A stretch of DNA of 64,000 nucleotides from assembly GCA_945889495.1 (NCBI GenBank), contig CAMDBU010000001.1, positions 17,877 to 81,876 on the forward strand, given 5' to 3'. Positions 13,531 to 62,572 of the stretch are shown in pieces (positions within the stretch are counted from its first letter, which is position 1; each line of letters begins with the position of its first letter). The position numbers and the translations under genes were made by a program. The stretch comes from Syntrophobacter sp. SbD2 (GTDB lineage Bacteria; Desulfobacterota; Binatia; UBA9968). The notes beneath the pieces were generated by a model, which saw only the letters and a program-made list of their open reading frames with translations, had not been told where the DNA came from and searched no databases.

Positions 13531-14844
13531 CTACAGCAGAGTGCCGCGTAATACGACCGCCGCTACCGTAAAGTAAATCACCAAGCCAGTGACATCGACG
13601 AGGGTTGCGACGAAGGGCGCCGACGCGCTGGCGGGGTCGAAGCCCAGCGAGCGTAAAATGAACGGCAGGATCGAGCCCATCAGTGATCCCCACATGACCA
13701 CGCCGACTAAACTTAGACTGACGGTCAGAGCGATGAGAAAATAATGCTCGCCGTAGGCGGCGAACCAGTATTGCCAGAGTAGGATGCGCACCAGGCCGAT
13801 GGACGCCAAGATCAGCCCCAACGCCAGGCCGGTGGTGAACTCGCGGCGGATGACGCGCCACCAGTCGCGCAGCCGCACTTCGCCCAAGGCCATGGCGCGG
13901 ATCACCAACGTGGTCGCTTGGGATCCGGAGTTGCCGCCGCTGCTGATGATCAGCGGCACGAACAGGGCGAGGATCACGGCGCGGGCGATCTCGGCCTCGA
14001 AATAGCCCATCGCCGTGGCGGTGAGCATCTCGCCCAAAAACAGCGCGGCTAGCCAGCCGGCGCGCTTTTGAATCATCTTCGCCAGCGAGACTTGCAAGTA
14101 GGGGCCGTCCAAGGACGCCGCGCCGCCGATTTTGTGAATGTCCTCGGTGGCTTCTTCCTGGACGACATCGACGATGTCGTCGACGCTGACGATGCCTTTG
14201 ATGCGCCCTTCGGCGTCGACCACTGGAACCATCAGCAGGTGGTGGCGCATGAAAAGCTTGCTCAGCGCCTCCTGGTCCATCTCTTCGTTGGCGGCGATGA
14301 TCTGGGTGCGCATGACCTCGCCAATCGATTTATCGGCCGGCGTGACGATCAAATCGCGGAAGGTGACGACGCCGAGCAAGCGCTCTTGGTGATCGACGAC
14401 ATAGGCGTAATAGGTCGTGCGCGCCCGGCTCTGGGCGTCGCGGCGCAGATAACTGATCGCCTCGCCGACGGTCATCTCGGGACGGAGCCGCGAGTAGCGC
14501 GTGTTCATCAAGCCGCCGGCATCGTCCTCGGCGTAATCGAGCAGCCCTTTAACTTCCCGTTGGGTGGCGTTGTCGAGTAGTTCGAGTAGCGCGCTGCGCT
14601 CCTTTTGCGGCGCTTCTTGGATCAAATCGGCGGCGTCGTCGGGGGCGAGCAGGCGCACCCATAGGCGGCGCTCGCCGGCGGGCAGGCCGAGCACCAGGTT
14701 GGCGCGGTCGCGCAGGCTCAATTGCAGGAAAAACGATTCGGCGTCGTCCCGTTGTAAAAACTCGAAGCCCTCGACGCGCTCGGCGCGGGACAGCACCGGC
14801 CAGGCGTCGTACAACTCGGAAGGGGTGAAAGTTTTCTGCGCCAT
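13531..14844 (-). CDS. mgtE: Magnesium transporter MgtE, 437 aa.
   Basis: N-terminal domain, tandem CBS region, then a C-terminal 5-TM domain with …SSGGNSGSQ…. Confidence 0.85.
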   Translation of the reverse strand: MAQKTFTPSELYDAWPVLSRAERVEGFEFLQRDDAESFFLQLSLRDRANLVLGLPAGERRLWVRLLAPDDAADLIQEAPQKERSALLELLDNATQREVKGLLDYAEDDAGGLMNTRYSRLRPEMTVGEAISYLRRDAQSRARTTYYAYVVDHQERLLGVVTFRDLIVTPADKSIGEVMRTQIIAANEEMDQEALSKLFMRHHLLMVPVVDAEGRIKGIVSVDDIVDVVQEEATEDIHKIGGAASLDGPYLQVSLAKMIQKRAGWLAALFLGEMLTATAMGYFEAEIARAVILALFVPLIISSGGNSGSQATTLVIRAMALGEVRLRDWWRVIRREFTTGLALGLILASIGLVRILLWQYWFAAYGEHYFLIALTVSLSLVGVVMWGSLMGSILPFILRSLGFDPASASAPFVATLVDVTGLVIYFTVAAVVLRGTLL

Positions 14845-19491: not shown

Positions 19492-20462
19492 AGCAGGCAA
19501 AACCGATCGTTATCTTGCTGCTCAAGCTGCTGGTTAGCGGCGGCCTGTTGGCGTACTTTTTCTCCCGGGTGCATCCCGAGTGTTTCATTGAGACCTTCGC
19601 CACCGCGAACTACTCTTGGATCCTGTTGGCGTTGGTGGTCTACCTGTGCACTCAAGGGCTGAGCGCGGTACGCTGGGCTGCGCTGGCGCGTCCGTTGGGT
19701 ATCCAGACGCCGTTCAGGGACATGCTCAAATTTTACTTGATCGGTATGTTCTTCAATTTATTCGCGCCAGGCACGGTGGGCGGCGATGTTAGCCGGGTGC
19801 TCTATTTGGTGCGCGATCAAGACGCCCACGCCGCCGGACGCTCGGTGACCACCACCCACGCGACGATGTCGGTGTTGATGGATCGCGCCATCGGCATGAT
19901 CGTCTTGGTCTGGGTCGGCGCCGCGGGGCTGTTGCTTTTTCCCGCCTACCCGGTGCCGTCGCTGGCTCGTTTGATCACCCTGTTGCTCGCCGGCGGCTTT
20001 GTCGGCGGCGTGCTGTTACTGCCCATGCTCCGGCGTTTGTTGCCCGAAGACGGCCATCCGCTGGTGGTCAAGATTCGCCTGGCCCTGCGCAGTTACCGCA
20101 CCCAGTGGCGCGCCTTGGCGCTGGCCGCGGCGCTATCTCTGGGGGTGCATCTGATCCAGGCCTGGATGCATCAGGTCATGGGCCGGGCGCTCGGCTTAAC
20201 CGTGCCCTATTCGTTCTGCCTAATCGTCTATCCGCTGGTTGGCACATTCTCGGCGATCCCGGTGAGTGTGAATGGACTGGGGTTGCGCGAAGGCGGCTAT
20301 ATTTATTTGCTCGCCGTCATCGGCATCGGCACCGAGCAGGGCATCGCCTTCGGGTTGCTGCTGTTCCTGATCGTCGCCCTCGACAGTCTATTGGGAGGGG
20401 TCCTCTTCCTCCTGCAAAAGTCGCCGCGAGCGGCTACCACCGTCGCCGAAAAAGCAGTCTAG
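19488..20462 (+). CDS. Lysylphosphatidylglycerol-synthase-TM-like / flippase-like membrane protein (UPF0104 family).
   Basis: Its ATG overlaps the purN stop (ATGA). Eight predicted TM segments. …LIGMFFNLFAPGTVGGDVSRV… is typical of this family. Confidence 0.55.
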   Translation: MKQAKPIVILLLKLLVSGGLLAYFFSRVHPECFIETFATANYSWILLALVVYLCTQGLSAVRWAALARPLGIQTPFRDMLKFYLIGMFFNLFAPGTVGGDVSRVLYLVRDQDAHAAGRSVTTTHATMSVLMDRAIGMIVLVWVGAAGLLLFPAYPVPSLARLITLLLAGGFVGGVLLLPMLRRLLPEDGHPLVVKIRLALRSYRTQWRALALAAALSLGVHLIQAWMHQVMGRALGLTVPYSFCLIVYPLVGTFSAIPVSVNGLGLREGGYIYLLAVIGIGTEQGIAFGLLLFLIVALDSLLGGVLFLLQKSPRAATTVAEKAV

Positions 20463-21814
20463 ACTAAATACGCGCGGAAAATCGTCGCCAGGCCGAGGAA
20501 CGACAGAAAGCCGAAGGCATCGGTAAGACCGGTGACGATGATGCCGGACCCAAGGGCGGGATCGAGCTTCATCGCTTTCAACAACAGCGGAATCACCGCG
20601 CCGGCAAAACCCGCCATCAGTCCCAGATTCAACAGCATGGCGCCGGCTAGCACCAACCCCAGATAAGCATTACTCTTCCACAGACCGGCGGCGACGGCGA
20701 TCATGACGCCGGCGGCGATGGCGATGCAAATATTCACCGAGACCTGTTTGACGATCGCTTTCCAGGCCGAGGAGAATTCCAGCTCGCCCAGCGCGATGGC
20801 GCGAATGATCACCGTGGCGGTCTGGGTGGCGCCGTTGCCGCCGACGCCGGCGACCACCGGCATGAAGGTGACCAGGGCGATGATCTCGTGCAGCGTGCCT
20901 TCGAACAGCCCGACGATGGAAGCGGCCAGGGATGCCGTCAAGAGATTGAGGATGGTCCAGGGCAGGCGCATCTTCACCGAGCGCGCCACCGGCGTGAAGA
21001 CCCGGTCCTCCTCGGCCAAGCCGACCATCTTGTACATGTCCTCGGTGCTTTCTTCCTTGATGATGTCGATGACATCGTCCACCGTGATGATGCCTTCAAG
21101 GCGGCCGCCTTCGTCGACGATCGGCAGCGCTAGTAGTTCGTACTTGGCGACCAGGCGGGCGGCGTCCTCTTGATCCATGAAGACATCGGCCTTGATCGGA
21201 TCGGCGATCATCATCTCGCTCAATTTGCGCGCCGGCGGCGCGATCACCAGGTTGCGGATCGGCACCACACCGGTGAGCTTGCCGTCGTCGTCGACGACGT
21301 AGAGATAAAAAAAGCTTTCGAGCTCGCCGCGCTCGCGGATTTTATCGATGGCGCCCTGGGCGGTGGCGTCCGGCGGCAGCGCCATGAAGTCGGTGGTCAT
21401 CAGGCGGCCGACGGTGCCGTCGGGGTAGTTGATGATCTCGCGCACCGCCGCCTGGCGCTCCGGGTCGAGCAGCGCCATGACGCGCTCGCGGCGCTCGTCG
21501 GGCAGGCTGTCGATGAAGGTGACCGCGTCGTCGGGGTCGGCGCGCACGATCAGCCGGCCGACCTTATCGTCGTCGATCAGCGCGAGAATGTCCGGCAGCA
21601 GCTCCGGCGGCAGTTCTTTGAGGGTCTTGGCGGCGCGCCGGGACGAGAACAAGACGTCGAACAGCTGGCGCACTTCGGCCTGGTCGAGTCCTTTGAACAG
21701 CAAAGCGATGTCGGCCGGATGACTCTTGCCGATGAAACGGAGCACCCGGTCGGGGGTCGCGGTGCGCAGCATTTCGCGCACGGTGTCGTAATCGATGGGA
21801 GCGGGTTTCATCAT
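20459..21814 (-). CDS. mgtE: Magnesium transporter MgtE (second paralogue), 451 aa.
   Basis: Same N-domain / CBS / TM architecture as 13531-14844. Confidence 0.85.
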   Translation of the reverse strand: MMKPAPIDYDTVREMLRTATPDRVLRFIGKSHPADIALLFKGLDQAEVRQLFDVLFSSRRAAKTLKELPPELLPDILALIDDDKVGRLIVRADPDDAVTFIDSLPDERRERVMALLDPERQAAVREIINYPDGTVGRLMTTDFMALPPDATAQGAIDKIRERGELESFFYLYVVDDDGKLTGVVPIRNLVIAPPARKLSEMMIADPIKADVFMDQEDAARLVAKYELLALPIVDEGGRLEGIITVDDVIDIIKEESTEDMYKMVGLAEEDRVFTPVARSVKMRLPWTILNLLTASLAASIVGLFEGTLHEIIALVTFMPVVAGVGGNGATQTATVIIRAIALGELEFSSAWKAIVKQVSVNICIAIAAGVMIAVAAGLWKSNAYLGLVLAGAMLLNLGLMAGFAGAVIPLLLKAMKLDPALGSGIIVTGLTDAFGFLSFLGLATIFRAYLV

Positions 21815-23776: not shown

Positions 23777-24427
23777 TTAGAGCTCGCGCACCGGGTGGAA
23801 GCCGTTGGCGCTCTTGCGGCCGAGCACTACGGTGTAGAGCGAAGTCTTGCTGAGCTTGTAGACACTCTCGACGGTCAAACCGGTGCTGGCGATGAACGGC
23901 TTAAGCTTTAAGTCGGTGCGCCAGCCCAACCAGCGGGTCAGTGGATCGATGGCTCGGGTGACGGTGCCGATCACCGGCATATCGGTGGTGAAGTGATTCA
24001 AGATGACGATGCGGCCGCTCGGTTTGCACACCCGTTTGGCCTCGGCGATCATGCGGATTGGATCGGGCACCACGGTGACGACATGGAAAGCCATGACGTA
24101 ATCGAACGAGTTGTCGGCGAATTTCAGATTGAGCGCGTCCATTTCCATGACTTTGAAATGGTGCCAGCCGTTTTCGACGATCTTTTGCCGCGCCCGCGAT
24201 AGCATGTCTGGCGCCAGGTCGACGCCGGTGACTTCGCAGTGATTGGGATAGGCGGGGAACGATGTACCCGTGCCGGCGCCGATTTCGAGGATCTTGGCGC
24301 CCGCCGGGATGTCGAGATTTTCTATAACCCGTTCGATGCGATTGTAGAAGAGCTTGCCAAAGATGCGGTCGTAGAGCGGTGCAAACTCGCCGTAAAGTTT
24401 GCTCTCATGCGCTTCGATTTCAGCCAT
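23777..24427 (-). CDS. Class I SAM-dependent methyltransferase, 216 aa.
   Basis: Motif I ILEIGAGTG. Motif post-I VTGVDLAPDML. Confidence 0.7.
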   Translation of the reverse strand: MAEIEAHESKLYGEFAPLYDRIFGKLFYNRIERVIENLDIPAGAKILEIGAGTGTSFPAYPNHCEVTGVDLAPDMLSRARQKIVENGWHHFKVMEMDALNLKFADNSFDYVMAFHVVTVVPDPIRMIAEAKRVCKPSGRIVILNHFTTDMPVIGTVTRAIDPLTRWLGWRTDLKLKPFIASTGLTVESVYKLSKTSLYTVVLGRKSANGFHPVREL

Positions 24428-56800: not shown

Positions 56801-57877
56801 ATGGCGGCGAAACGAATCTTAATTTGTCTAGATGGAACCGGTAACGATCCAAGCGATGCCAAGCAGAAGGTCGATAAGGAAGGCAAGATGGAGGACGACA
56901 ATATCTCCAACGTGCTCAAGCTGCACTTGTTGGCGGGCGGCCGGCTCGACAATGTGCAGTTAAACGCCGCGCAGCATTCTTACTATTACTCCGGTGTCGG
57001 CACCCGAGGAACAATTTTCCGCCGGGCGTTGGCGTCGGCCTTTGCCAGGTTGGAGCCCAAACTGATTCTTAAAGACGCCTATGACGACCTCTGCGGCCAT
57101 TATCAAGTAGGTGATGAGCTGTTTATTTTCGGCTTTAGCCGCGGCGCGGCGATCGCGCGCCGGCTGGCGTCCCAGATCTCGCGTGAAGGCGTCGTCGTCG
57201 GTCGTGTCAAACATGAGCCTCATATCAAAATGCTCGGAGTCTGGGACACCGTTGCCGCCATCGGTGTGCCGAACCTGGATGATAGCGAGCAGCCGGTATC
57301 CGATGTGGTGTTCGAGAACGGCACCATCGCCGACAAGATCGACCATGCCTTTCACCTGGCCGCGGTGGACGAGACCCGCCTGGCGTTTCGACCGACGTTG
57401 ATGAATTTCTCGCCACGGGTCAGTGAAATTTGGTTTCCCGGAGTGCATAGCGATGTCGGCGGCGGTTACCGGTTGAGCGGGCTGTCCGACCTCGCGCTCA
57501 AGTTCATGATGGACAAAGCGCGAGATCATGGCGTGGCGTTCATTCAACCCAGCGCCATCGCACCGGCAGCCTTGTCGCAAGGCAAGCACAAGATCGATCT
57601 TGAAGATGTCGCCGCCGCGCCCGATGCGCGCGACCGTTTGCATGTCCATGTGCGCGATGAAAAGGTCGCTTCGGTTACGCTCAAGCCGAGAAATATCCAT
57701 GTGACGGTTGGCGATAAACCAAGCGCCGATCGTTTACCGATCCTGCACCACAGCGTTATCGAGCGCATCAAGGGCGACTCCAGCTACCGTCCGGTGAACC
57801 TGAAGGAGCTCAAGCATCAGGTGCTGCACGCGGATGGAAGTTTGACCCAGCACGGTGGGTTGGAAGAATTTATTTAG
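56801..57877 (+). CDS. DUF2235 alpha/beta-hydrolase-domain protein (T6SS Tle1 phospholipase-effector-like family), 358 aa.
   Basis: N-terminal ILICLDGTGND and GxSxG nucleophile FGFSRGAAIARRLA. RBS AGGAGG. Confidence 0.65.
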   Translation: MAAKRILICLDGTGNDPSDAKQKVDKEGKMEDDNISNVLKLHLLAGGRLDNVQLNAAQHSYYYSGVGTRGTIFRRALASAFARLEPKLILKDAYDDLCGHYQVGDELFIFGFSRGAAIARRLASQISREGVVVGRVKHEPHIKMLGVWDTVAAIGVPNLDDSEQPVSDVVFENGTIADKIDHAFHLAAVDETRLAFRPTLMNFSPRVSEIWFPGVHSDVGGGYRLSGLSDLALKFMMDKARDHGVAFIQPSAIAPAALSQGKHKIDLEDVAAAPDARDRLHVHVRDEKVASVTLKPRNIHVTVGDKPSADRLPILHHSVIERIKGDSSYRPVNLKELKHQVLHADGSLTQHGGLEEFI

Positions 57878-58831: not shown

Positions 58832-59008
58832 GAAGTGTTGTCATTTCGACCGCAGGGAGAAATCTCTTCGCTGAACCGGAGAGATTTCTCACATTCGTTC
58901 GAAATGACAGCGTAAAAAAATCTGTTATACGGGCGCAGGCCGGTATCCAGGAGTGGGGTGGGCTCCAATCTGGATGCCGGCCTACGCCGGCATGACGGAA
59001 ATGAGGTG
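58832..59008. repeat. REP/MITE-like hairpin cluster, D family (GTCATTTCGA…GAGAAATCTC dyad, then GCCGGTATCCAG…CTGGATGCCGGC…CATGACGGAAAT).
   Basis: Seen in the sequence. Related to 9625-9726 and 62381-62572. Confidence 0.6.
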
Positions 59009-59056: not shown

Positions 59057-60163
59057 CTAATCCAGCCAATCCTTATCCTTCAATTTTCTCGGCAGGTAAG
59101 TATTGGTCAAATACTGAAAATCTTTGTTCGCTAAGGCATCTAGTTCGAACTTTAGGCCGCTGGTGAGCATGCCTTTGATTTCGTTTTGCCATTCTTTTTT
59201 CTGGAACCATTTGTATTTCATCAGTTCCTTGGCGCGGTTGATGTCTTTGTCGTTGAGCTTAATACCGACGTTGCGCGGTAGGCCGTAGCGTTCTGGATCG
59301 GCGCTGGAGAAGCCGATGAATTTTGCCTTGGGGATCGCCATGCGTTCGCTTTCGAAGGCGAGATTGATCGACCCCTGCTTGATGACCGAGTAGATGTAGT
59401 AGCCCCAGGGGTCGTTGTCGACCAGAACATAAACCGGCAGTTTGTAATCTTCATGCAGCCGGCGCGCCAGCCGGCGCACGCCGCGCGGCGGTTGGCCGTT
59501 GCCGGTGAGTAGGATGCAGTTATAGCGGCGCCAGAATTTATCTTCCGACAGCCGGTTCCACTGGGTGCCTTTTTCCACCAGCAGGACGAAGTCGGCGCTG
59601 CATTTGGCGATCTGAATATATTCCGGCTCGACAATCGATGGCACCGAGTAGCCGCCGTTGCCGAGCTTGGTGCAATCGACCCGGTCGCCATCGTCGACAA
59701 TCGTCATCGGGCCGACCACGGTGCCGCGGTTTTCGGCGCGGACATGGAGTTCTTCGCGCAGCGCTTCGAGGGTGACTTCGAGATCTTCGATCAACGGATC
59801 GGACTCGTTCTGGTCGTCAAAGGTGTTCTCGTTGGAATTCTTAATCGTGTGTTTGGTGCGATAGTAAATTTCCCGCAGCGAGGTGGTCAGGTTGGCGCGC
59901 TGGAGTTCGGCCAAGGCGTCGGCGACCATTACGGTCTGCATGAATTTCTTGGCCATGCCGACGTTGAAAAAGGTTCGCGCTTGTTTGCGCTTGCCCATTT
60001 CAATGATGCCGCGTTTGGCGTTGAAGTTGACATTGGCCAGGCTGCGCACCGGGATCGCCAGCGCCGGGTCCTGGCTGCGCTGGGCCGCGCCGATGACGAT
60101 ATCGGCGATGCCAATCAGTTTTTTCTCGACGACGCCGTTATTTTTTGGTTTTTTTGCCGCCAT
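59057..60163 (-). CDS. top6A: DNA topoisomerase VI subunit A (Spo11/Top6A family), 368 aa.
   Basis: Catalytic-Tyr region LREIYYRTKH. TOPRIM acidic motif YVLVDNDPWGYY. Confidence 0.85.
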   Translation of the reverse strand: MAAKKPKNNGVVEKKLIGIADIVIGAAQRSQDPALAIPVRSLANVNFNAKRGIIEMGKRKQARTFFNVGMAKKFMQTVMVADALAELQRANLTTSLREIYYRTKHTIKNSNENTFDDQNESDPLIEDLEVTLEALREELHVRAENRGTVVGPMTIVDDGDRVDCTKLGNGGYSVPSIVEPEYIQIAKCSADFVLLVEKGTQWNRLSEDKFWRRYNCILLTGNGQPPRGVRRLARRLHEDYKLPVYVLVDNDPWGYYIYSVIKQGSINLAFESERMAIPKAKFIGFSSADPERYGLPRNVGIKLNDKDINRAKELMKYKWFQKKEWQNEIKGMLTSGLKFELDALANKDFQYLTNTYLPRKLKDKDWLD

Positions 60164-62156
60164 GATTCTTTCCTGTCTGCTTTGCCGGTTTTACGAGGGG
60201 AAGGGCTAATTGTTTTTTGTCTTTGGTACCGCGTTCCGGTTTCGCTTTACTTGTTACCGGTTGGGTCTTCGCCTTGGCTGAAGCGCGGTCACTCGCCAAG
60301 GTCGGTAGCGCCGGCTCGGCAGCCGCCGTTTGCGACGCCGCTGCTTGTGTCATGCTAGGCACTTCTGGCGCGTCGCCCTCGGCGCCTTCGGCGGTGACGA
60401 TGATCGAGTGCGGCAAACCCTCCGGTCCGCTGTCGTGGCCGAGGATCTCGTCGATCTTTGGCCCGCCGGTGCGTTTGGCGGCGATCTTTTGCAGTTGTTC
60501 TTTCAATTTTTCCGTGGCGATCTTGCCGCCTTTCAAGCGGCCGCAGGCTTCGGCGACCTCTTCGATGTAGAGCTCGAAAATATTGCGCCGGCGAAATTCG
60601 TCCTTGGCGCGCTCGCGCCGGCGCAGAAAGACGCCGAGCCGCCGGCCGCACTCTTGGAGCGCCAGTTTGATTTCTTTTCTGATCTCGTCGTAGTCGGCGA
60701 TGGCTTCTTTCGATTCACTGGTAAACGGCACCCACACCGACGCCATATGGACGAAGATCACCATCGGCCCGGCGGGCAGGGCGCCGCGCGATTGGCCGAC
60801 GCCATAGTTGCGCCAGCTGGTGTCGAGCACCGATTTGAATGTCGCGCAGGCCGACTGCTGGTAGAGTAGCGGCACGCGGTTGGCGTAGCGGATCACGCTC
60901 GCCAACTCGTTGTCGTCGTCTCGCTCTTCGCCTTCGGCGAGCGGCATGTTTTGCTCTTTCACTTTCGTCACGTGGTCAGGATGCTTGCCAAAGGCAAGGC
61001 CGGCCTCGATGACGAACGGGTTGCCGCGGTAGACCGCCGGCGGCCGGGTCACGGCGGTGTAAAATTCGCCTTTGATCTGTTTGTACAGGCCATGCAGAAT
61101 CGCGCGCTCGCCGATGGGCGAGAGGCAGTTCGACGGCGGCGCCATGATCTTGGTCGACTGGATCGCTTTGTAAAACGTTTCCGCGGTGGCGCCGTGCAGA
61201 TCGCGCGGTTTTAAGTTCGGCGATAGCTTGGCGGTTTTGCAAATCTCCTGCGCCAAACTCGATGACACCCGGCTAAACTCGCTCGATAGAAAACCCACCA
61301 GCGAATGGCTCTTGGTGTCGTGCAGCATCTTGAGCATCATGCCGAACTCTATTCCGTAGGGATGCGGCTTGATCTCGCGCGGCTGCGGCGGCAGCTCGTC
61401 AATCGTTCTCGGATACTGTTTAATCTCGCCTTCCGGCGTGTGGTAGATGAGCTTCACATGGGGATTGGCGATGGCGGTCTGTTCCAAATATTCGTCCACC
61501 GAAGCGCGGCCTTTTTGATAGCGCCCTTCGATTTCCAAACTGACCTGGGTGCCGCGCTGGTTTTCCCAGTCGATTTTTTTGTTTTCGAAGATGCGCGGCT
61601 CATTCTTTTTCGTATCGATCTGCACTTCGAAATAGTGCGCCGGCGCCTTGGCGCCGGTGCGGGAAATGATCTGCACCGGCTTACCGGTGGTCAGCTGGGC
61701 GTACATGCCGGCGGCGGAAATGCCGATGCCTTGCTGGCCGCGGCTCATGCGCAGGCGATGAAACTTCGAGCCGTAGAGCAGCTTGGCGAAGATCGGTGGG
61801 ATCTGCTGGCGCACGATGCCGGGGCCGTCGTCGATCACCGTGACGCGAAAGCGCGTCGCCTGAGCGGGGGTGGGCATGGCGCCGCCGTTGGCAACCACTG
61901 CCAGCTTGACCGTGACTTCCGGTAGGATGCCGGCCTCTTCGCAAGCGTCGAGAGCGTTGTCGACCGCCTCTTTGATGCAGGTGAGCAGCGCCTTGCGCGG
62001 ACTGTCGAAGCCCAGCAGGTGGCGGTTCTTGGTAAAAAATTCCGAGACGGAAATTTCCCGCTGGCGCGCGCCCATCTCGGCCGCGGTGACGGTTTTTCTC
62101 GGTTCGGCCGGCGCCGGTGCGGCTTCAGCCTCAGCCTTGGGCATAGGTTTAGACAT
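60138..62156 (-). CDS. top6B: DNA topoisomerase VI subunit B (GHKL ATPase), 672 aa with a ~140-aa Ala/Lys/Pro/Thr-rich C-terminal tail.
   Basis: Bergerat-fold motifs CIKEAVDNALDACEE and VIDDGPGI. Transducer region. It overlaps top6A by 26 nt. Confidence 0.85.
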   Translation of the reverse strand: MSKPMPKAEAEAAPAPAEPRKTVTAAEMGARQREISVSEFFTKNRHLLGFDSPRKALLTCIKEAVDNALDACEEAGILPEVTVKLAVVANGGAMPTPAQATRFRVTVIDDGPGIVRQQIPPIFAKLLYGSKFHRLRMSRGQQGIGISAAGMYAQLTTGKPVQIISRTGAKAPAHYFEVQIDTKKNEPRIFENKKIDWENQRGTQVSLEIEGRYQKGRASVDEYLEQTAIANPHVKLIYHTPEGEIKQYPRTIDELPPQPREIKPHPYGIEFGMMLKMLHDTKSHSLVGFLSSEFSRVSSSLAQEICKTAKLSPNLKPRDLHGATAETFYKAIQSTKIMAPPSNCLSPIGERAILHGLYKQIKGEFYTAVTRPPAVYRGNPFVIEAGLAFGKHPDHVTKVKEQNMPLAEGEERDDDNELASVIRYANRVPLLYQQSACATFKSVLDTSWRNYGVGQSRGALPAGPMVIFVHMASVWVPFTSESKEAIADYDEIRKEIKLALQECGRRLGVFLRRRERAKDEFRRRNIFELYIEEVAEACGRLKGGKIATEKLKEQLQKIAAKRTGGPKIDEILGHDSGPEGLPHSIIVTAEGAEGDAPEVPSMTQAAASQTAAAEPALPTLASDRASAKAKTQPVTSKAKPERGTKDKKQLALPLVKPAKQTGKNHGGKKTKK

Positions 62157-62380
62157 CGAGATTTAGTTTCTCCATAGATAAATTGTGCGCCGGAAATCTG
62201 AGACTATTGGGCGGCACGGGGCGCCGCCGTAAACTCTGGTGACGCGATAGTCGAATGCAAAGCCAGGTCAAACGTTCACGCTTCGGAAGGTTGTTGTTCA
62301 CCGCCGATTATAGCAAAGCGGAAAAAGTTGTGAATGGTTGTGGAGAAAATTCTGAAAAAAGTTTCGGCGGTTATTCTCTC

Positions 62381-62572
62381 CGTCCTTCCCGCGTAGGCGG
62401 GAAGGACGGTTTGTTCGAACTCAATAAGATGGATTCCTGCCTGCGCCGGAATGACGGAATAAGAGCGAAGCGCGCGGCTCCATGGTTGTCATCCTGAGCC
62501 AAAGGCGAAGGATCTCGTCTTTGTAAGCTGCAGCCGAGACGAGATTCTCCGCTCACGCTCAGAATGACGTTC
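62381..62572. repeat. REP/MITE-like hairpin cluster, D family.
   Basis: CCGTCCTTCCCGC-GTAG-GCGGGAAGGACGG. GGAATGACGGAAT. GTCATCCTGAGC…GAAGGATCTCGTC // GACGAGATTCTCC…CTCAGAATGAC. It explains spurious ORFs 62371-62556 and 62489-62734. Confidence 0.6.

Follow-up and report, generated by a model that had tools for sequence, protein, structure and literature searches.

DNA topoisomerase VI (topo VI) has been characterized as a preferential decatenase (PMC8837201). For bacteria, a decatenase role of topo VI was postulated where topo IV is absent, and topo VI-bearing bacteria outside Pseudomonadota and Terrabacteria were reported to lack topo IV; the role of topo VI in bacteria was left as an open question, and extensions, tails, lysine or clamp-binding motifs were not mentioned (Allen & Maxwell 2024). 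Two canonical motifs of ligands of the bacterial sliding clamp (beta-clamp, DnaN), namely Q-phi-x-[L/M]-[F/L] and the hexameric Q-phi-x-[L/M]-x-[F/L], occur in disordered termini; acidic residues frequently come next, and forms without the glutamine are rare among known ligands (PMC11139829). The sequence PAQLSLPLYL of E. coli Hda binds with a dissociation constant (KD) of 0.38 µM (PMC11139829, PMC9690074). Two clamp reviews name no topoisomerase as a bacterial clamp partner, although they include Topo I and Topo II-alpha as partners of PCNA (PMC9690074, PMC11139829). Here a top6B-top6A operon is described from Syntrophobacter sp. SbD2 (Binatia; assembly GCA_945889495.1, contig CAMDBU010000001.1, positions 17,877 to 81,876); this whole stretch of 64,000 nucleotides is called the window below. 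What is new here is a type IIB topoisomerase with what looks, from its sequence, like a bacterial clamp-docking code in the tail of the B subunit. No link between topo VI and the clamp, DnaN or a clamp-binding motif was found in the literature, the coverage of which was incomplete, and an earlier description is possible.

The Top6B tail and its clamp-binding-type motif

The two genes and the elements of the Top6B tail are located as follows.

60138..62156, minus strand: top6B, an open reading frame (ORF) of 672 aa
59057..60163, minus strand: top6A, an ORF of 368 aa with PF21180, PF04406 and PF20768
60366..60476, minus strand: invariant post-transducer block of 37 aa (aa 561-597), KRTGGPKIDEILGHDSGPEGLPHSIIVTAEGAEGDAP, almost all columns invariant in 20 relatives
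60141..60365, minus strand: disordered basic tail (aa 598-672), Ala/Pro/Thr/Lys-rich, predicted from composition
From aa 598: variable linker, Ala/Pro/acidic
60297..60317, minus strand: semi-conserved EPxLPxL (EPALPTL, aa 614-620), column conservation 40-80% in 58 tails
About aa 630-648: Lys-rich stretch, variable in sequence and length
60195..60212, minus strand: clamp-binding-type motif QLALPL (aa 649-654), which fits Q-phi-x-[LM]-x-[FL]
Aa 655-672: basic end, 16-24 residues in relatives

An alternative ATG four codons downstream in the top6B ORF gives the 668-aa form of public databases. The first-pass annotation had described the protein as about 140 aa longer than archaeal Top6B, with an extension in the form of a low-complexity Ala/Pro/Lys/Thr tail. 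The difference in length holds against the 530-aa Sulfolobus protein but not against the Top6B of M. mazei (621 aa), and the extra length consists of ~24 aa at the N-terminus and ~110 aa beyond the family profile. The lysine-rich extension was confirmed; however, it also contains an invariant block, EPxLPxL and a near-invariant clamp-type motif, and the low-complexity description fits it only in part.

Tails were aligned for 20 relatives and then for the 59 full-length tails of the closest homologues. The consensus of the 37-aa block is KRTGG.K.DEILG..GPEGLPHSIIVT.EG.EG.AP. A cognate acidic plus [IV][IV][IV] strand was found in Planctomycetota tails, and the block is missing from bacterial Top6B forms that end in ...LERSRKL. 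Residues 598-672 are predicted to be disordered from their composition: the mean hydropathy (0.398) is below the Uversky boundary (0.466), order-promoting residues account for 12% vs 31% in the core, and K+R make up 21%. Apart from the motifs, the sequence of the tail varies among relatives. The EPxLPxL element reads EPELPILVDD in relatives, and Nitrospira tails have DLLG at a similar place.

The tail peptide bearing QLALPL (Q649, L652, L654) is GTKDKKQLALPLVKPAK. The pattern Q[LM]xLx[FL] was found in 58 of the 59 full-length tails, at a distance of 16-24 aa from the C-end (18 aa in the window). The lone tail without it, P0029, ends in ...SKSEQRKANDFRP vs ...SKSESAKQMTLGF... in its relatives, which looks like a frameshift in that assembly. 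The codons of the motif vary synonymously (CAA/CAG for Q; TTA/CTG/TTG/CTC/CTT for L; TTC/TTT for F). By its sequence, QLALPL is a canonical beta-clamp-binding-type motif that is conserved at the protein level in close homologues.

Conservation of the tail could also be a by-product of the overlapping top6A start, its Shine-Dalgarno (SD) sequence and translational coupling, with no function at the protein level. Over the last ~10 residues this does hold. In 45 close homologues matched by the search pattern, positions -9/-8 counted from the Top6B C-end read HG, NG or DG; the pair is encoded by NAT-GGN codons, which always embed the top6A ATG (window 60138-60194; L005, L006, L013-L030). The T/S-G-K/R codons before that pair spell GGA(A/G), the SD sequence of top6A. 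In Nitrospira, with a gap of 4-9 nt between the genes, the Top6B end RGKK (CGA GGA AAG AAA) provides the SD for a non-overlapping top6A. Since the last ~10 residues carry the start codon and SD of top6A, conservation there is not readable as protein function. The motif, however, is located 31 nt upstream of the top6A ATG and shows synonymous changes between relatives, is kept where the genes do not overlap, and is N-terminal, far from top6A, in other phyla. For the motif this explanation is refuted, and as an account of the tail in general it has a very small probability.

A scan of labelled genomes gave at least 594 confirmed relatives, and all locus-level comparisons refer to the best 80 of these; a second bacterial cluster (Myxococcota, Alphaproteobacteria, Bdellovibrio) lies outside the 80. 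Top6B was translated from these 80 labelled loci, and 72 labelled bacterial sequences were counted. Canonical motifs were found in Top6B terminal extensions of five bacterial phyla, and the motifs included the following.

C-terminal, Binatia: QLSLGL (L005), QMSLGF (L006 and L008)
C-terminal, Nitrospira: QIALF (L013), QAALF (L015), QMALF (L021)
C-terminal, Phycisphaerae: QSDLF (L035)
N-terminal, Phycisphaerae: QLDLPF (L032)
N-terminal, Planctomycetota: QMDLF (L084), QLELTF (L037), QLELGF (L055)
N-terminal, Acidobacteriota: QMSLSF (L057)
N-terminal, Acidobacteria: QASLF (L065)
N-terminal, Gemmatimonadota: QIDLL (L062)

A canonical motif in the published definition was present in a terminal extension of 16/72 sequences, whereas 0.30 were expected from 3000 shuffles, none of which gave more than 3; the shuffles ignore shared ancestry. 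Eight hits were N-terminal and eight were C-terminal. The reversed pattern gave 0 hits in the terminal extensions of the 72 bacterial Top6B. With a broader Q-class set (adding QxxLF) the count was 22/72 vs 0.27 expected, and it rose to 38/72 vs 4.7 when an [LM]F on its own was accepted as well. Phenylalanine makes up 1.1% of residues in the extensions, and 33 of the 85 phenylalanines are preceded by Leu, against an L+M background of 5.8%. The residue directly after the motif is D or E in 25/44 cases vs 24% expected (p = 4e-6). No motif was found in 30 archaeal-type Top6B representatives, in which N-terminal extensions are all but missing and the C-terminal parts are acidic. A scan of archaeal-type Top6B termini for PCNA-interacting protein (PIP) boxes revealed no enrichment, the matches being QxISxAEFF of the folded core and one relaxed C-terminal match. 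In Top6A, the motif was absent from all lineages. The unalignable flanks and the switching of the motif between termini from lineage to lineage argue for selection on the motif itself.

Alternatively, the tail could be a non-specific polycationic DNA-binding appendage, like histone H1, that raises DNA affinity or processivity and in which the motif has no partner. This would agree with the K+R content of 21%, with the widespread occurrence of Lys-rich extensions, some of them motif-less (P0121, P0138, L007, L009, L026, Eisenbacteria), and with the short basic N-terminus that Top6A also has. However, the Lys-rich stretch varies in sequence and length and the hydrophobic motif is a conserved island in it (58/59), hydrophobic residues are otherwise depleted in the extensions (F 1.1%; 33/85 F after L), and electrostatics alone predict no Q-phi-x-L-x-F at either terminus in different phyla. 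We consider such an appendage unlikely to be the whole explanation.

The motif could also dock something other than DnaN, namely a factor of SMC/ScpAB or ParB type, a protease adaptor, or the Top6A/Top6B core in a contact that gates activity. None of these alternatives predicts QMDLF, QLDLPF, QMSLSF, QASLF and QSDLF, and the exact fit to the clamp consensus, including the Leu/Phe endings and the acidic flank, recurs in the window's clade and in several phyla; gene neighbourhoods indicate no alternative partner. In favour of another partner are the dominance of the Q-less [DEST]LF[GDE] in Planctomycetota, the presence of EPxLPxL and the invariant 37-aa block in the same extension, and the use of short hydrophobic motifs by many systems. 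Its probability appears to us quite low.

Several observations weigh against clamp docking. Neither a Q-class motif nor [LM]F was found in 34/72 bacterial sequences, including both Rokubacteria, both Eisenbacteria and several Nitrospira, and the Lys-rich tail of P0121 (78% identity) is without the motif. Most Planctomycetota versions have the Q-less [DEST]LF[GDE] followed by a K/R cluster, and QLALPL of the window is followed by V-K, with no acidic residue. Modeling of Top6B using AlphaFold 2 with the 20-sequence alignment led to a mean predicted local distance difference test score (pLDDT) of 36.7 and a predicted template modeling score (pTM) of 0.24, that is, to no usable structural model. 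The neglect of shared ancestry in the shuffles and the nucleotide-level constraint on the last ~10 residues count on the same side.

With these points taken into account, Top6B is proposed to be a beta-clamp ligand. Binding in the DnaN cleft is the defining feature of clamp ligands, and the membership of Top6B is therefore proposed, not established. The Top6B motif would bind in the hydrophobic cleft of DnaN, and the lysines on its flanks would contribute non-specific affinity for DNA. As clamps accumulate on DNA that has just been replicated, the enzyme would become enriched at such sites and would remove their precatenanes and catenanes as well as positive supercoils. Tethered to the replisome, topo VI would in effect stand in for topo IV or work alongside it. 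We regard such a clamp-tethered decatenase on fresh DNA, with DnaN docking by the motif and DNA affinity added by lysines, as reasonably probable from the sequence evidence, and it agrees with the report that most bacterial groups with topo VI have no topo IV. A broader proposal seems to us evenly poised between right and wrong: after the archaeal transfer, Top6B may have gained clamp motifs repeatedly, at either terminus and in different phyla, and may be the first example of a type II topoisomerase that the bacterial clamp itself recruits, a replication-coupled decatenase in lineages without topo IV.

The conserved clamp-type motif makes the question of the role of topo VI in bacteria concrete: does the enzyme bind to DnaN, and does it move along with the replisome or in its wake? 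If the proposal is true, a topoisomerase joins the 'tool-belt' of the bacterial clamp, the coupling of decatenation to replication in bacteria without topo IV is explained, and a horizontally acquired archaeal enzyme was adapted by gaining a short linear motif of its host's interaction code. The carriers include environmentally important bacteria, namely Nitrospira nitrifiers, Binatia and Planctomycetota.

The enzyme, its operon and its bacterial relatives

The domains of Top6B and the control elements of the operon are located as follows.

61407..62063, minus strand: Top6B GHKL/Bergerat ATPase domain (~aa 32-250), by residue-wise alignment to M. mazei and S. shibatae Top6B and by HATPase_c
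61155..61397, minus strand: Top6B H2TH region (~aa 254-334), by gapless alignment to M. mazei Top6B residues ~225-305
60477..61139, minus strand: Top6B transducer domain (~aa 340-560) with the switch-lysine block FTSESKEAIA, by PF09239 and alignment to 2q2e_B
60138..60163, minus strand: dual-coding overlap of 26 nt, encoding the Top6B end ...H-G-G-K-K-T-K-K-stop and the Top6A start M-A-A-K-K-P-K-N-N in two frames
62307..62334, minus strand: sigma-70-like promoter candidate (TTCACA, 16-nt spacer, TG-TATAAT; 11/12 consensus matches)

The Pfam search assigned TOP6A-Spo11_Toprim (PF21180; 1.7e-61 over the full profile 1-170), TP6A_N (PF04406; 1.5e-18) and Topo_VI_alpha (1.9e-9) to Top6A, and Topo-VIb_trans (PF09239; 2.2e-55) and HATPase_c (9.8e-9) to Top6B. 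The NCBIfam equivalog scores were 571.4 bits vs a cut-off of 465 for Top6A (NF003333, a model with the odd product name 'topoisomerase IV subunit A') and 675.6 bits vs 274 (NF003218) and 521.3 bits vs 380.7 (TIGR01052) for Top6B. In the PDB, Top6B matched 2q2e_B of M. mazei (E=3e-143) in a continuous alignment over residues 22-533, and Top6A matched 2zbk_A of S. shibatae (E=1e-79). The different best matches of the two subunits might suggest that they have separate origins, but their genes stay syntenic throughout the clade.

The motifs quoted in the first-pass annotation (LREIYYRT and VLVDNDPWG in Top6A, EAVDNALDA and IDDGPGI in Top6B) and the end of the tail are all present in the translations. 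In Top6A, the winged-helix/5Y-CAP catalytic tyrosine block LREIYYRT aligns with IRDLYYRG (S. shibatae) and LREAYYVS (M. jannaschii), and the Toprim Glu motif LLVEKG and DxD motif VLVDNDPWG align with VLVVEKD and ILTDADPYG. The GHKL boxes of Top6B, namely the N-box EAVDNALDA, G1 DDGPGI and G2 SRGQQGIGISAAG, align with those of M. mazei and S. shibatae. As the catalytic Tyr block, Toprim, GHKL boxes and the transducer lysine block all align, the enzyme is predicted to be catalytically competent, a complete type IIB topoisomerase (A2B2, ATP-driven strand passage) with all catalytic motifs intact. Genes of gyrase or topo IV are absent from the window, as had been noted, its only ORFs of at least 590 aa being MetH (955 aa), Top6B and an ABC-F ATPase.

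As in the topo VI holoenzyme, top6B and top6A are adjacent same-strand genes for separate subunits, and Top6A adjoins Top6B in 58/84 loci. The holoenzyme of this family relaxes and decatenates DNA at the expense of ATP, through double-strand breaks with a 2-nt stagger. The ORF list and reading of the sequence at 60138-60163 confirmed that both subunits are intact and overlap by 26 nt, which excludes a frameshift or truncation. The same 26-nt overlap was found in the Binatia loci L005 and L006, and gaps of 4-9 nt were found in Nitrospira and Rokubacteria. Translation of top6A appears to be coupled to that of top6B through the overlap. A reading in which frameshifting within the A-rich overlap fuses B to A was dropped; Top6A is in the +1 frame relative to Top6B, and no support for a shift was found. 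The promoter candidate, which was recognized by its consensus match only, is placed between the upstream hairpins and the top6B start, and judging from these matches the operon appears to be a transcription unit of its own.

The ORFs and the Pfam, NCBIfam and PDB matches support the earlier description of the locus: a bacterial chromosome carries a top6B-top6A operon whose ancestry is archaeal and whose B subunit has a lysine-rich extension. Topo VI is typically archaeal and strong hairpin repeats are present on both sides of the operon; the pair could thus be a recent archaeal transfer, a mis-binned archaeal fragment or part of a contig chimeric at the flanking repeats. However, codon usage is host-typical: the z-scores of G+C content at third codon positions (GC3) are -0.22 and 0.04 for the two genes, and an index like the codon adaptation index (CAI) is at or above the window mean. 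A 100%-identical 668-aa Top6B (P0001) was found in NCBI, ENA and Logan, and identical synteny, with the same junctions, in four independent assemblies (GCA_947446275.1, two ENA assemblies, Logan runs). The shared gene order is NMT1-like, YDMC-like, top6B, top6A, SDR, Tle1-like, and the upstream NMT1 gene still adjoins top6B in two other Binatia species. In addition, no long direct or inverted repeat is common to the two flanks.

The nearest relatives of Top6B were bacterial. An exhaustive search gave 3034 Top6B representatives at 50% clustering. More than 120 protein clusters of 660-690 aa were at least 77% identical to Top6B, the named ones being Candidatus Binatia, 'Deltaproteobacteria' or similar metagenome-assembled genomes (MAGs). 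The closest relatives (70-93% identity) belong to Binatia, Rokubacteria/Methylomirabilota and Nitrospirota, and the nearest archaeal-type sequences show ~47% identity or less. At the locus level, identities of 70-83% were found with Binatia, Rokubacteria/Methylomirabilota and many Nitrospira/Nitrospirota, and of 48-59% with Planctomycetota, Acidobacteriota, Eisenbacteria and Gemmatimonadota. The first-pass annotation had called topo VI sporadic in bacteria, and the literature says so too; however, at least 594 relatives were confirmed here, the best 80 of them bacterial save one MAG labelled Nanoarchaeia (L042).

A distance tree of Top6B built from 513 core columns recovered Binatia, Rokubacteria and Nitrospirota as one monophyletic group in 30/30 bootstraps; the group nested among bacterial-type sequences, with the window's Top6B placed with other Binatia. 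The labelled archaea (Aenigmarchaeota, Methanolinea) were distant (d > 0.8); cluster names yielded taxon labels only for Planctomycetota, Aenigmarchaeota and Methanolinea. Taken together, host codon usage, independent synteny, the bacterial relatives and tree, and the conserved NMT1 gene rule out contamination, chimerism and a recent archaeal import, to which we assign a negligible probability. The operon is neither isolated nor a recent import; it is a long-resident gene pair of the Binatia, Rokubacteria/Methylomirabilota and Nitrospirota clade and descends from an ancient archaeal transfer.

Some of the relatives deserve separate mention. L042 (JAQTOC010000001.1, 'Candidatus Nanoarchaeia' MAG, 120-kb contig) encodes a 530-aa Top6B, 57% identical to that of the window and without extensions or motif. 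The neighbour-joining tree places it within the bacterial-type clade, which might reflect descent from a DPANN relative of the donor lineage, a back-transfer or mis-binning. Top6B of the Binatia/Nitrospira type was also found in MAGs labelled Betaproteobacteria/Burkholderiales (L007, VBCH01000026.1; L009, DATHHS010000209.1; 82-83% identity), with Lys-rich N-terminal extensions and no clamp-type motif, and in a MAG labelled Elusimicrobia (L024, CAYHPY010000140.1; 71% identity). The three MAGs were probably mis-binned or mislabelled, or the gene moved between phyla recently. Top6B homologues of 780-1150 aa (P0123, P0127, P0130, P0134, P0144, P0148, P0151, P0172) contain intein-like insertions, either in the transducer or immediately ahead of the G2 box (SRGQQGIG), and some of these homologues are bacterial-type sequences. 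A tblastn search of the plasmid collection revealed no further full-length bacterial Top6B lineages; its matches were three haloarchaeal replicons with annotated Top6B and two weak partial ones in unannotated stretches (a Synechococcus plasmid and a Halapricum replicon).

Flanking repeats and neighbouring genes

The repeats that had been noted on both sides of the operon are real and comprise four independent strong hairpins (z = -5.9 to -7.4).

62488..62568, no strand assigned: upstream intergenic palindromic repeat with the ends GTCATCCTGA...TCAGAATGAC (-43.9 kcal/mol, z = -5.9)
62380..62409, no strand assigned: upstream intergenic hairpin, perfect 13-bp (-28 kcal/mol, z = -5.9)
58921..58999, no strand assigned: downstream intergenic hairpin (-44.9 kcal/mol, z = -7.4), with a U7 run after it on the operon strand
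58839..58909, no strand assigned: downstream intergenic palindromic repeat with the ends GTCATTTCGA...TCGAAATGAC (-35.7 kcal/mol, z = -6.2)

The hairpin at 58921..58999 is a possible terminator of the operon; a simple terminator scan made no call there. The end pattern of the 58839..58909 element has matches on both strands vs 0 expected. The ends GTCATYYYGA...TCRRRATGAC were found on two of the four hairpins and are enriched in the window (6 vs 1.2 expected); GTCATYYYGA has further occurrences at 23998 and 46548. According to exact k-mer and repeat-family searches, the flanking 'D-family' repeats have structure and end motifs in common and not a long exact sequence, and no long direct or inverted repeat pairing the two operon flanks was found. 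The flanking repeats are ordinary intergenic hairpins resembling repetitive extragenic palindromes (REP) or miniature inverted-repeat transposable elements (MITE), and not ends of a mobile island or signs of a chimeric contig. Translation of the palindromic elements led to spurious peptides in the ORF list (…RRNDG…, …SFRRRQES…).

The rest of the window is an ordinary bacterial chromosome with metH, ABC transporters, an HtrA-type protease, two mgtE and a Rieske oxygenase, and tRNA and Rfam scans of the window gave no match. Clustering of gene neighbourhoods at the best 80 of at least 594 loci revealed no conserved neighbour besides top6A; the representatives were unrelated housekeeping genes. 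A ResIII/DEAD-box helicase-like gene is located directly downstream of top6A in six Nitrospira/Nitrospirota loci (L013-L021 type, e.g., L017:6955-8727) and is the only lineage-restricted neighbour with a DNA/RNA-related function among the loci listed. The ORF at 56801-57877 (plus strand), two genes away from top6B-top6A, encodes 358 aa with a Tle1-like phospholipase catalytic domain of the type VI secretion system (T6SS; PF09994, 1.2e-48), and no type VI secretion genes were seen near it. Two paralogues of MgtE-family magnesium transporters are located less than 7 kb apart (13531-14844 and 20459-21814, both on the minus strand).

Comparison with known systems

Topoisomerase VIII/Mini-A shares a type IIB ancestry in bacteria with the enzyme described here, and topo VIII is only remotely similar to topo VI. 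An assignment to topo VIII (a fused B-A polypeptide of plasmids and integrated elements) was rejected: the operon has two separate ORFs, passed the topo VI equivalogs and is located in a housekeeping chromosome without mobile-element genes. Topo IV (ParC/ParE) has the same job that is proposed here, namely decatenating replicated chromosomes and relaxing positive supercoils. Unlike the type IIB topo VI, it is type IIA and has a non-homologous cleavage subunit; to our knowledge, topo IV makes no use of a clamp-binding motif. Actinobacterial topoisomerase I is a type IA enzyme whose disordered polycationic lysine-repeat C-terminal tail acts through charge. Its likeness to the window's Top6B consists in the polycationic C-terminal tail on a topoisomerase, and we know of no report of a conserved hydrophobic docking motif in it.

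Archaeal topo VI (M. mazei 2Q2E; Saccharolobus shibatae 2ZBK) has the same two-gene A2B2 plan, with aligned catalytic motifs and the same domain order (GHKL-H2TH-transducer in B; a winged-helix domain with the catalytic Tyr plus Toprim in A). The identity of Top6B is ~45-47%. The window's Top6B is without the Ig-like C-terminal domain of M. mazei and has instead the 37-aa block and the basic, predictedly disordered tail with a clamp-type motif. The bacterial topo VI of Allen & Maxwell 2024 (e.g., of Nitrospira moscoviensis, Pirellula staleyi and Anaeromyxobacter) is the same enzyme; their catalogue covers 17 bacterial families including Nitrospiraceae, and Binatia is not among them. Nitrospira Top6B is 70-79% identical to that of the window and forms one clade with it. 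Leaving the motif aside, the operon is ordinary, already auto-annotated in public MAGs and close to the known Nitrospira enzyme.

A parallel to the tail, which is predicted to be disordered, is provided by the beta-clamp ligands, in which the canonical motif is located in a disordered terminus (N-terminal QLSLPL of Hda, C-terminal QLVLGL of Pol IV, QLGLF of Pol II). The KKQLALPLVK of the window differs from QLSLPL of Hda at the tolerant third position alone.

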